Shown here: positions 45,101-48,100 of the stretch, piece after piece | Layout: each line of letters begins with the position of its first letter | How positions within the stretch are numbered: position 1 is the first letter of the stretch | NCBI RefSeq assembly: GCF_017348835.2 | Contig: NZ_CP071375.1 | Length of the DNA: 64,000 nt | Direction: 5' to 3' (one strand) | Source: Escherichia coli | GTDB lineage: Bacteria > Pseudomonadota > Gammaproteobacteria > Enterobacterales > Enterobacteriaceae | Position numbers: made by a program

Positions 45101-48100
45101 CCTGTCGGCTGCCGTTCTGGCGCTGATTGGTGCAGGGGCGTCTGCGCCTGAAATCCTCGACCAGTTTCTGGATGAAAAGGATGGTAACCACACCACAGCA
45201 TACCGTGATGGTACGGGTATCTGGACCATCTGCCGCGGTGCCATCCTGGTGGATGGTAAACCTGTCGTCCCGGGCATGAAGTTGTCGAAGGAAAAATGCG
45301 ACCAGGTTAACGCCATTGAGCGTGATAAGGCGCTGGCATGGGTGGAGAAAAACATCAAAGTGCCGCTGACCGAACCCCAGAAAGCGGGGATCGCGTCATT
45401 CTGTCCGTACAACATTGGTCCCGGTAAGTGTTTCCCGTCGACGTTTTACAGACGAATTAATGCAGGTGATCGCAGGGGAGCATGTGAGGCGATTCGCTGG
45501 TGGATTAAGGACGGTGGCAGAGACTGCCGTATTCGCTCAAACAACTGCTACGGTCAGGTCTCACGGCGTGACCAGGAGAGCGCGCTGGCGTGCTGGGGAA
45601 TTGACAGATAAGAAGAATATTTTGCTGAAAAATGAGGTTTGCTTACATGGACGGATAACACGAAATCCTGCAAATTGGCAAAATGTAAGTGAATAAAGTT
45701 AAAACAGTTGTTTAACACTCAGGCACCGTAATGATGCCTTTGTCATTTCTGCGCATCTCACGCGCATCTCACAACACAGAACCTTTCAGGATGACCCTTG
45801 AGGATACCGGTTTGGCTGTGCCTTTCTGTGGGCTGGATTCCTGTGAGACAAGGTTCATCACTAAAAGGAAATAACCGATGAATATGATGGCCGTGCCGTT
45901 TTATGTAGTTAACCATAATGGCGAACCATACGTTCCCATGAAACCTGTCGTTGCGGGGATGGGGCTGGCCTGGCAATCACAGTTGGCTAAGTTAAGACAG
46001 CGTTTTGCGTCAACTATAACGGAAATCGTTATGGTTGCTGAGGATGGGAAACAACGCAATATGGTGTCCATGCCACTTCGAAAACTTGCCGGCTGGCTAC
46101 AAACCATTAATCCCAACAAAGTAAAACCCGAAATCCGCGATAAGGTCATCCGGTATCAGGAAGAGTGCGACGATGTTCTTTACGAGTACTGGACGAAGGG
46201 TTTTGTCGTTAATCCCCGTAAAATGAGCGTGATGGAAGAACTCAACCAGGCTTGTGCTGACATGAAACGGGATAAAAACATTGCCAGTGTGTTTGCTACC
46301 GGGCTGAATGAGTGGAAACAGGTTAAAGCCGCGCATGTATCAAAAATCCGTACGCTGGTAAATGAAGCGAATATGCTGATTGATTTTGTCCTGGCTGATA
46401 CAGGCAAAGGGAAAATAACAAAGGCGGATTGATGGGGTGGCTAATGATATCAGATAAACTCATAACGCTGGTGAAGAGCCTCTGTGTACTTGTCGGCATT
46501 TCATTTTTAGTCATGCTGGTTGCCATTTTCTTTTCCACCGCCTGGCGAGTCCTGACGTTATCGGGACTGGTGGGGTGAAAGAGAGATGAACCGTGTTCTG
46601 TGTGTGGTGATTATTGTCCTGGCGGTTGGCTGTGGTGCGCTGTGGCTGGCAACAAACCATTACCGTGACAACGCGCTCACCTACAAAGCGCAGCGCGATA
46701 AAAAAGCCAGAGAGCTGGAACAGGCGAATGCCACCATTACTGACATGCAGGTGCGCCAGCGTGATGTTGCTGCGCTCGATGCAAAATACTCGAGGGAGTT
46801 AGCCGATGCGAGAGCTGAAAATGAAACTCTGCGTGCTGATGTTGCCGCTGGTCGTAAGCGCCTGCGGATCAACGCCACCTGCTCCGGTACCGTGCGTGAA
46901 GCCACCGGCACCTCCGGCGTGGATAATGCAACCGGCCCCCGACTGGCAGACACCGCTGAACGGGATTATTTCATCCTCAGAGAACGGTTGATGACAATGC
47001 AGAAGCAGCTGGAAGGGGTACAGGACTATATCCGCACTCAGTGCCTGAACTAAGTTTTGCTGATGCGCCGTATCGTCGCCGTATTCCTGCATTAACAGAG
47101 ACCGCAGCCCGACAGGGAGACTCCTCTGCGAGAGTGTGCGGGGATAATCAAAAACGATACACACCGGGGTTTACCGCGTAAACGGAGCGCGGCGTTCTCC
47201 CCTCATGGTCGCCCGTCCGGTGCGATGGTGGAAGAAACTGGAATCTGTTCAATAAAAAAACTGCCGTGTTGGAGTCACAGCAGTAATGTACTGATTGGGT
47301 AGAAGATTATTATTGTTATGCTTTATTTTTATTCTATATGGCTGATTATTTCAATTCGGAATTAATACAGCTAATGTCTGTGATTTTTTATAAATTCAGC
47401 AATATAAAGAAATAGTTATATGAACAGCCATCGCAGAGCATACTGTGTATCATTCTTTTTTATAGTCAACTGACGGGCATATTTTATGTCTGCTGCCAGC
47501 TCCCGGCGGCAAGATTCAATGACCCACGCAGAAAAATTTTCTGAACCTTTCTGGTCAAGAGCGATGTTAATTTGTTCAATCATCTGGTTTGGAAATCGGA
47601 TGTTGCGGGTTGTTGTTCTGCGGGTCCGGTTTTTCGGTGACATTTTCTTTCCTCTGGTGACAAGCTATATGGCGAGGATTTTACATGGCCGTGCTTCGTA
47701 CGTTACCGGGCAGAATCAAAACTCTGAACACCCGGCGGGTGAATGTCCTGAAGGGTGAACAGCGTCGGGTCAGTGGTAGTGCCCGGGTTTCCCTCAAGCG
47801 TCGTATCTGGCTGAGGGATGCCGGACAGTGCTGTCTCTGTGGGCGTGTGGTTGACCTTTGTGACAGTGAACTTGAGCACCGCATTGCACTTCAGTTCGGT
47901 GGTGGTAATGAGGAGACGAATCTCTGGACGCTCTGTACCGAATGCCATCGACAAAAGTCTGCTCGTGAAGCGGCGAGTGGTATGCCAGACCCGACGCTGC
48001 CGGAGGTGTCCGGAGGTCATGGCAGGGCAGACGATATCATCGGACTGTGACCCGCCCCGGGGGGGGGATCATCCGGCGAAAAAAACGATCGCCCCGGACA

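Follow-up and report, generated by a model that had tools for sequence, protein, structure and literature searches.

The window analysed here is a 64-kb stretch of Escherichia coli DNA (contig NZ_CP071375.1) that includes the lysis cassette of a prophage late operon. Within this cassette lies a gene for a protein with an antirepressor-type N domain (hereafter the Ant-like gene), and the roughly 130 nucleotides (nt) ahead of it encode the subject of this report, a structured leader RNA. The leader starts with an exact tandem repeat of 11 bp. A first-pass annotation had suggested that the repeat could be an operator for the Ant-like gene. As shown below, it is the 5' end of the structured leader RNA, and its reading as a DNA operator is not supported.

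The lysis cassette and its leader

The locus has the following features.

45078-45611, + strand: endolysin R (Phage_lysozyme, PF00959), with a hydrophobic N-terminus
45705-46446, + strand: swapped cassette (weak hairpin, leader RNA and Ant-like gene), between R and the backbone of small transmembrane open reading frame (ORF) and Rz
45721-45750, + strand: weak hairpin AGGCA...TGCCT with a T-rich tail, read from the sequence; the site of a strong terminator in most family members
45751-45772, + strand: exact tandem GCGCATCTCAC x2
45751-45880, + strand: copy 1 of the structured leader RNA, up to and including the ATG of the Ant-like gene; 101.5 bits with covariance model (CM) R1
45878-46432, + strand: Ant-like gene, 184 amino acids (aa), with P22_AR_N and ORF11CD3 and without P22_AR_C
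46432-46578, + strand: 48-aa ORF with a single transmembrane segment (PHROG 4906), part of the lysis backbone; its ATG overlaps the stop of the Ant-like gene
46586-47053, + strand: Rz spanin, with Rz1 embedded at 46806-46991

Phage PhiR12_1 (L004) has no Ant-like gene. By BLASTN it is homologous to the window at 45013-45704 and 46447-47030 and not across 45705-46446. Because the homology flanks but skips that stretch, 45705-46446 is the exchangeable cassette. A CM search of the lysis cassette of PhiR12_1 finds no leader element, and Stx2c phages (Stx, Shiga toxin) are likewise without the Ant-like insert in BLAST comparison. By the comparison with PhiR12_1, the 48-aa membrane ORF belongs with Rz in the lysis backbone, not in the insert. 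The first-pass annotation, which placed the Ant-like gene between endolysin and Rz, was right about an insert in the lysis module; the 48-aa ORF, which it had passed over, intervenes before Rz. The stop codon of the Ant-like gene overlaps the start of this ORF (TGATG at 46430-46434), an overlap suggesting that the insert and the backbone ORF are coupled in translation. Other neighbours in the lysis region are a class II holin (Phage_holin_2_1) and a DUF1327/YdfR protein.

The arrangement of R, Ant-like gene and Rz is ordinary, and existing annotations of hundreds of Stx phages show the gene at this position. The 2.1-kb stretch from R through ant to Rz is 97-99% identical to Stx2a_1447, Stx2a_WGPS2 and BP-4795, the last of which names the gene 'ant'. 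Of 5426 complete E. coli genomes, 831 contain the ~0.8 kb between the end of R and that of ant, in a median of 3 copies per genome and at most 9. In a survey of Stx phages, Ant was counted in 126 of 279 genomes (PMC8136144).

The tandem repeat itself is confirmed. Tandem Repeats Finder gives an array at 45751-45772 with period 11, 2.0 copies and 100% match, and this is the sole short tandem of 100% identity across the window. By simple arithmetic, about 0.015 exact 11+11 tandems are expected per 64 kb of random sequence. From the anatomy of the leader (listed next, by paired strands), the repeat is a hairpin, H1, made of copy 1 and the GCGC of copy 2, followed by a linker that is the remainder of copy 2.

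45751-45754 / 45762-45765, + strand: H1, GCGC/GCGC, with a 7-nt loop AUCUCAC
45756-45761 / 45843-45848, + strand: pseudoknot PK1, UCUCAC in the H1 loop with GUGAGA at the P4-P3 junction, found by covariation
45775-45781 / 45824-45830, + strand: pseudoknot PK2, CACAGAA directly 5' of P2 with UUCUGUG in the apical loop of P4, found by an anchored pairing test
45782-45789 / 45861-45868, + strand: P2, CCUUUCAG / CUAAAAGG, which pairs around a C.A mismatch and contains the Shine-Dalgarno (SD) sequence in its 3' strand
45790-45800 / 45849-45859, + strand: P3, GAUGACCCUUG / CAAGGUUCAUC, all 9 counted pairs having a compensatory change
45801-45810 / 45833-45842, + strand: P4, AGGAUACCGG / CUGGAUUCCU, with one G.U pair that is C.A on the opposite strand

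The aligned sequences show a predicted fold with a long stem P2-P3 capped by hairpin P4, plus H1, PK1 and PK2. All of these helices may coexist in one compact fold, because their lengths would allow P4 with PK2 to lie alongside P2 with P3. In the window copy, the nested minimum free energy fold is the same as the consensus fold. The SD sequence AAAGG(A) lies at 45864-45869 within the 3' strand of P2, 8 nt ahead of the ATG at 45878.

Compensatory changes and the leader family

The CM was built on the nested helices only and used to gather alignment A5 (88 distinct sequences). Alignment A6 is an independent set from species-representative genomes. In A5, 92.3% of the cells are paired, compared with 83.8% in shuffles and 29-49% in slid controls. 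Both sides change in 25 of its 34 pairs, compared with 11.5 in shuffles (0 of 500 shuffles are as high). In A6 93.6% of the cells are paired and 22 pairs change on both sides, and again 0 of 500 shuffles are as high. H1 is paired in 100% of 87 distinct sequences and has one compensatory change from CG to UA. The 5' strand of P2, CUUUCAG, is invariant in alignment A3.

Since the model left the pseudoknots out, PK1 and PK2 provide an unbiased test of the fold. PK1, a helix outside the CM, is paired in 98.6% (A5) and 96.2% (A6). Its consensus is UCNCAC in the H1 loop with GUGNGA between P4 and P3, and the variable position in A5 is occupied by GC (47), UA (23), AU (10) and CG (1). Distant members have other complementary pairs at the same place, such as ACGCCC/GGGCGU (the second copy in the window), CGCUC/GAGCG, CCGCAAU/AUUGCGG and GCCCAG/CUGGGC. 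In a position-anchored test, PK2 forms 6.11 bp on average with its own partner and 2.37 bp with a partner from another class, and at least 10 different complementary versions exist in the family. These compensatory changes show that the leader is a conserved RNA structure, in the form predicted above.

The spacing between the two most conserved blocks takes all three values modulo 3 (26, 27 and 42 sequences), and the open frames have no consistent phase. Together with indels that are not triplets, this excludes a conserved reading frame. A small upstream protein encoded by a 47-aa ORF (45731-45874) was considered and rejected: its match to PHROG 16173 covers the first 30 residues only, the indels are not triplets, and there is no consistent frame. 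Several GenBank records annotate a 'hypothetical protein' (PHROG 16173) over the leader; this is probably a false call on a non-coding RNA. G.U pairs in P3 and P4 fit the + strand only. An RNA of the minus strand was rejected as well; its folding z is slightly better (-1.5), but the G.U pairs and the orientation of the gene favour the + strand.

The leader is not restricted to the Ant-like gene. BLAST of 45590-45900 splits the region in two, where part 1 travels with R and part 2 runs from the tandem repeat to the ATG. Part 2 recurs at ~85% DNA identity before unrelated genes, with the similarity ending at the start codon. These include sb54 of Salmonella phage ST64B, a KilA-N gene among the tail genes of Klebsiella phage 2b, the Rha gene of HK639 and an HNH gene of ECP1. 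Part 2 is also found in sal4 and a P22-like phage, and P13374 carries two copies. A leader version ~79% identical to that of the window precedes ant in P13374 and phage 86.

Viral contigs were scanned with the pattern GCGCNTCNCACGCGC-N10-22-CTTTCAG. The scan gave more than 120 stretches, from which 95 unique complete elements and 65 non-redundant cargo proteins (the products of the genes behind the leader) were obtained. The elements are 110-137 nt long and end at the start codon. They belong to at least three sequence types, A (the window), B (HK639) and C, to which a divergent P22 type is added. Only the first unit of the tandem repeat is conserved. The second unit is exact in 3 of the 95 unique members, all of the Stx-phage ant lineage, and has 4-6 mismatches in 69; six further members, which are of types A and B and include HK639, have it with one mismatch.

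Among the 65 cargo proteins are Phage_Tail_Tip (16), KilA-N (15), Rha (9), ORF11CD3 (7), HNH_3 (4) and P22_AR_N (2), and further domains are ANT, T5orf172/MUG113 and P63C. At least one of the Phage_Tail_Tip (PF09327) genes is located in the slot between lysis and terminase genes and not among tail genes (L018 1551-2390 and similar type-C loci). This cargo might serve, for instance, as a receptor-binding decoy or an exclusion protein.

In species-representative genomes, CM-confirmed hits come from at least 20 genera of Enterobacterales, including Escherichia, Enterobacter, Citrobacter, Kluyvera, Leclercia, Pantoea, Serratia, Buttiauxella and Arsenophonus. Seven pattern hits outside enterobacteria (L131, L132, L136, L145, L149, L172 and L173) have no CM match at E<=0.001 and were read as chance. 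Three contigs of metagenome-assembled genomes (L130, L140 and L165), labelled Cellvibrionaceae, Collinsella and Bacillota, have leaders at CM 100-117 bits. The score of L140 is that of an E. coli hit in the same search. All three are probably mis-binned enterobacterial phage DNA.

Remnants of the leader exist in three contigs (L037 1073-1158, L080 6497-6584 and L092 10510-10607). In these, the first ~45 nt (H1, linker, CUUUCAG and GUGAGCC) are fused to a terminator of the GAGCCAC... type. They apparently arose by recombination between similar GAGCC segments.

The surroundings of the leader have regular features. The leader is co-directional with the upstream genes in 89 of 99 distinct contexts and usually begins 10-100 nt past their stop codon. 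In 91 of 103 distinct upstream contexts, a strong hairpin with a T-run is found, ending 2-3 nt or ~15-16 nt before H1; the terminator is often GCCUCGC-N4-GCGGGGCUUUUUUAU. No conserved -35/-10 was seen by eye in the 103 upstream flanks. The leader, in most contexts with a strong terminator ahead of it, is shown to be a portable unit, placed co-directionally in late operons before many unrelated cargo genes in phages and prophages across Enterobacterales. An internal attenuator terminator was rejected as a general feature, as a U-run after P4 occurs in type B only and is itself part of a pairing strand.

On the 3' side, the spacing from SD to start is 8-11 nt in the family. The predicted probability that the AAGG core is unpaired has a family mean of 0.128 and a median of 0.058, and the mean for the 31 other SD-bearing ORFs of the window is 0.419. 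The P22-type subfamily has in P2 a fully paired CUUUGAA/UUCAAAG in place of the C.A-mismatched helix.

Proposed function and its alternatives

It is somewhat probable that this portable unit of terminator and leader confines the expression of its cargo to Q-antiterminated late transcripts and throttles translation. The terminator would stop every transcript that is not made by Q-antiterminated RNA polymerase. The leader would hold the ribosome-binding site (RBS) in a stable, context-independent fold that restricts the access of ribosomes. Cargo of a potentially harmful type (KilA-N, Rha, Ant-like, nuclease) would then be silent in the lysogen and modestly translated from abundant late mRNA. 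Both effects, cargo off in the lysogen and limited late, would follow from the terminator gate together with the leader fold.

In favour of this proposal are the terminators in most upstream contexts, the low predicted accessibility of the AAGG core, and a simple consensus scan in which no sigma-70-like promoter appears between R and the Ant-like gene.

Several points weigh against it. Copy 1 in the window has a weak upstream hairpin and no strong terminator, and a terminator scan gave no call there. A non-consensus promoter could escape the simple promoter scan. In the P22-type subfamily the SD sits 3-4 nt 3' of P2 and not inside it, so that occlusion of the SD can be only part of the explanation. 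Folded with nested pairs only, the window copy has an unremarkable energy (z = -0.8). The fitting of alignments A5 and A6 to the nested helices introduces a bias for those helices but not for PK1 and PK2, and the family sequences are related, so that cell counts overstate the number of independent events. The double pseudoknot is also more elaborate than simple masking of the RBS requires. This excess complexity hints at a specific trigger or another activity, such as processing or the binding of a factor.

The hint corresponds to a different reading, in which the leader is a new class of responsive RNA (a switch for a ligand, factor or temperature, or a self-processing element) and the universal plug-in controller of exchanged late genes. 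Such a class is a tentative idea, with a real but rather low chance of being right. It might be a riboswitch-like sensor, a self-cleaving or processing element that releases the cargo mRNA from the long late transcript, or the site of a host or phage factor (ribosomal protein, RNase III, Hfq or similar). The leader would then turn on the translation of its cargo in a defined condition, and not just dampen it. It would fit the compact fold with two pseudoknots, the invariant unpaired or mismatched nucleotides (CUUUCAG, GGGC, GUGNGAC and the conserved C.A in P2), and the retention of the fold even where the SD is outside P2. PMC4936722, citing Mozola & Friedman, states that rha of P22 and phi80 harms phage growth in hosts deficient in IHF and that this host factor regulates rha, which also agrees with a responsive RNA. 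This phenotype is the only physiology known for any cargo gene. The functions of the cargo are, however, too diverse to indicate a ligand, the element fits none of the models of known riboswitches and ribozymes at a cut-off as loose as E<=10, and no candidate trans partner was found. A role at the level of DNA is improbable. Here the element would be a homology 'linker' for cassette exchange, or a target or flank for cargo of the homing-nuclease type, with the RNA fold being secondary. The same 5' unit does stand with different cargo in many genomes and has mosaic joints at its ends. The remnants in L037, L080 and L092, where the leader GUGAGCC recombined into a GAGCCAC... terminator, point the same way, and HNH_3, T5orf172 and His-Me nucleases are among the cargo. 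But recombination needs no compensatory changes, and it is by such changes that the pairing of four helices and two pseudoknots has been preserved; the element also always ends at the start codon with fixed spacing. Such a role is compatible with an RNA function rather than replacing it.

Less credible still is the operator suggested in the first pass, according to which the tandem repeat binds a regulator of an antirepressor gene whose product cross-induces prophages. The tandem is exact, the P22_AR_N domain is present, and the carrier E. coli genomes hold several copies of the gene (median 3, up to 9). According to PMC3121763, trans-acting antirepressors coordinate prophage induction in Salmonella. 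An operator should have both units conserved in relatives and a promoter adjacent to it. Only the first unit is conserved, and its loop covaries in the manner of RNA with a distal partner 85 nt downstream. No promoter-like site on which an operator could act is found in 45612-45877. The same sequence stands before HNH, tail-tip and KilA-N genes, and the protein is without the C-terminal half of P22 Ant and has no arc, mnt or sar-like neighbours. Equally hard to credit is a trans-acting 5' hairpin, cut from the leader like the processed antisense RNAs c4 of P1/P7 or CI of P4, that pairs with GUGNGA sites on other copies and gives an immunity-like specificity. Loop and target covary like lock and key in at least 8 sequence versions, and copies with different loops co-occur in one genome (two in the window, and more than one in P13374, L074 and L127). 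Against this, loop and partner are always within the same ~100 nt at a fixed geometry, which fits an intramolecular pseudoknot; Rfam C4 is unmatched, six base pairs are short for action in trans, and no free small RNA is documented at the locus.

The gene and its leader can be compared with known systems. The ant of the Stx phages BP-4795, VT2-Sakai and P13374 is this very gene at this position, and the DNA across R, ant and Rz is 97-100% identical. The differences are confined to an in-frame deletion of 5 codons near the N-terminus and, in the leader, the loss of 4 nt from the P4 loop. Morons, which Juhala et al. are said to have described in 2000, are reportedly additional genes within the late operons of phages, each having a promoter of its own and a terminator at its 3' end. 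The moron concept is cited in PMC4104026. Like a moron, the Ant-like gene is an exchangeable accessory gene between essential late genes that is absent from close relatives (PhiR12_1 and Stx2c phages). In contrast to morons, no promoter of its own was found by the scan, the terminator is 5' of the unit, and a structured leader is shared with unrelated cargo.

Other examples are found among structured leaders. The lambda N leader with its RNase III site and the hairpins of T4 mobE and I-TevI sequester the RBS, and those of T4 delay the translation of intrusive endonucleases. The present leader is similar in being a cis structure, with the SD predicted to lie in a helix in most members, and some of its cargo are free-standing nuclease genes. 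The lambda and T4 leaders are single gene-specific hairpins, whereas the phage leader here is a double pseudoknot of ~130 nt common to dozens of genes. The S4/alpha-operon double pseudoknot and the S15/rpsO pseudoknot are translational operators of ribosomal-protein operons of E. coli. They also have a pseudoknotted fold that encloses the RBS, but there is no sequence or model similarity to them in Rfam and no binding protein is known for the phage leader. In c4 of P1/P7, which controls icd-ant, and in IsrK-orf45-anrP of Gifsy-1, a structured RNA with a co-varying loop and target likewise stands before an antirepressor-type gene. Unlike these, the present leader is not specific to antirepressor genes, has loop and target in one compact fold, and is unmatched by Rfam C4 and isrK.

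A search of 43000-48500 with Rfam 15 gives no match at E<=1. At E<=10, the element itself and a type-C member give only noise of <=15 bits (no riboswitch, ribozyme, C4, isrK or AgvB/AsxR). The same library does recover AgvB, STnc100 and tRNAs elsewhere in the window. Exact strings of the leader have no match in the searchable literature of about 8 million papers, so that a description in a subscription journal is possible, and the supplements of Tree 2014 list no Hfq-bound RNA at the leader locus. The leader RNA is apparently undescribed before. Among structured, RBS-associated mRNA leaders it stands out for its double pseudoknot, its coupling to a 5' terminator and its portability among dozens of unrelated genes.

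The leader is widespread (at least 20 Enterobacterales genera), strongly supported by covariation, and present in P22, HK639, ST64B and prophages of enterohaemorrhagic E. coli (EHEC). Because these include tractable model phages as well as EHEC prophages, the proposed gate offers directly testable answers to two questions. One is how phages may silence potentially toxic accessory genes (KilA-N, Rha, Ant-like, nucleases) in lysogens and express them late. The other is the purpose of intra-operon terminators in late operons; the authors of work on phage L call their roles unknown and suggest, in line with the gate, that they may stop transcription begun without antitermination (PMC8022706). A portable, context-independent 5' unit could also serve as a natural expression insulator in engineering. 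If the responsive-RNA reading were true, the controller would sit before rha of P22 and, in this prophage, in the toxin-gene slot of Stx phages.

The Ant-like protein, other leader copies and neighbouring features

The first-pass annotation saw an antirepressor-type N-domain protein here, and a search with hidden Markov models bears this out. The ORF at 45878-46432 matches Pfam P22_AR_N (PF10547) with E 5.8e-42 at residues 9-108, and its C-terminus is ORF11CD3 (PF10549, E 5e-6). PHROG 524 ('anti-repressor Ant') is matched at profile positions 7-210 of 317 only. By BLASTP, residues 15-121 of the protein are 54% identical to P22 Ant (29-136, ~107 residues). There is no match to P22_AR_C (PF10548) and no significant BLASTP alignment to P22 Ant past residue 121. 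The protein is thus without the C-terminal ~160 aa of P22 Ant (184 aa as against 300 aa). Its likeness to P22 Ant is the P22_AR_N domain. The window gene is located in a late-operon lysis cassette, whereas P22 ant is in immI with arc, mnt and sar; beside the Ant-like gene, arc, mnt or sar-like genes are absent and the neighbours are lysozyme, the small transmembrane ORF and Rz. The RefSeq product name is 'phage antirepressor N-terminal domain-containing protein'. Searches of PDB, PADLOC and NCBIfam with the protein matched no solved relative, defence-system model or NCBIfam model.

In 2002 Iyer, Koonin and Aravind reportedly grouped P22_AR_N with KilA-N, Bro-N and Rha as predicted DNA-binding modules of phage regulators. 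Because the domain belongs to such a group, the label 'antirepressor' rests on the shared N domain. Inactivation of a repressor may be a candidate role for the protein, which has the N domain alone in common with P22 Ant. As judged by its position, this should be a late gene, read from the late transcript once the phage is already committed to lysis. In the Salmonella study of prophage cross-talk, the trans-acting antirepressors are said to be LexA-controlled early functions. Cross-induction of co-resident prophages, which the first pass also proposed, would be a candidate role only and is not favoured.

Two variants of the gene are observed. The window protein is without 5 residues, HG[D/N]SL, that are found in 933W/Sakai-type proteins (45878-45940 compared with L006/L021). 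In viral contig L025, the ant copy is frameshifted and truncated at about 85 aa.

The window has a second copy of the leader, with these features.

about 41016-41042, + strand: terminator ahead of leader copy 2, after Q and two tRNA genes
41048-41176, + strand: leader RNA copy 2, divergent (CM R1 42.4 bits, E 1.3e-8), with PK1 and PK2 kept by compensatory changes
41174-41605, + strand: TerB-like gene (PF05099, E 2.8e-15), whose ATG ends leader copy 2

The order upstream of copy 2 is Q (39787-40608), tRNA-Met(cat), tRNA-Arg(tct) and terminator. Leader copy 2 and the TerB-like gene occupy the slot of stx in Stx phages.

P22 (NC_002371) has a leader ahead of rha, at 39508-39641 (56.8 bits), and the GTG annotated as the start of rha (orf201), at 39575, falls inside the leader fold. 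There is an in-frame ATG at 39644 with the SD AAGAAGG, and this is probably the true start, 23 codons downstream of the annotated one; Rha would then have 178 aa. The P22 record is densely annotated and has no feature at the leader besides the rha coding sequence itself. Leaders of the P22 type are likewise found before KilA-N genes in the Stx phages 2851 and 1717 and before a homing endonuclease of Klebsiella.

A 616-aa ORF (42176-44026, + strand) lies upstream of the holin and has DUF1737, SASA (sialate O-acetylesterase) and DUF6645 domains. We take it to resemble the NanS-p esterases of Stx phages. Between the TerB-like gene and this esterase-like ORF, Rfam finds two convergent RNAs, STnc100 (41774-41966, + strand, 145.8 bits) and the anti-GcvB small RNA AgvB (41967-42028, - strand, 96.5 bits), arranged as in Tree et al. 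2014. An AgvB-like anti-small RNA was also considered for the tandem-repeat region, where CACAACAC fits the GcvB target consensus. It was dropped, as Rfam puts AgvB at 41967-42028 (- strand) and the AgvB/AsxR loci are reported elsewhere than the repeat region (PMC4104026).

Further repeats are found away from the leader. At 33083-33165, the short direct repeats TGTCACGACA (about 5 times) and then ACAGATAAAGAT (about 3 times) resemble replication-origin iterons. At 54352-55052, a unit of 162 bp is repeated 4.3 times with 97% identity in a coding region, and these are probably repeated domains of a virion protein.

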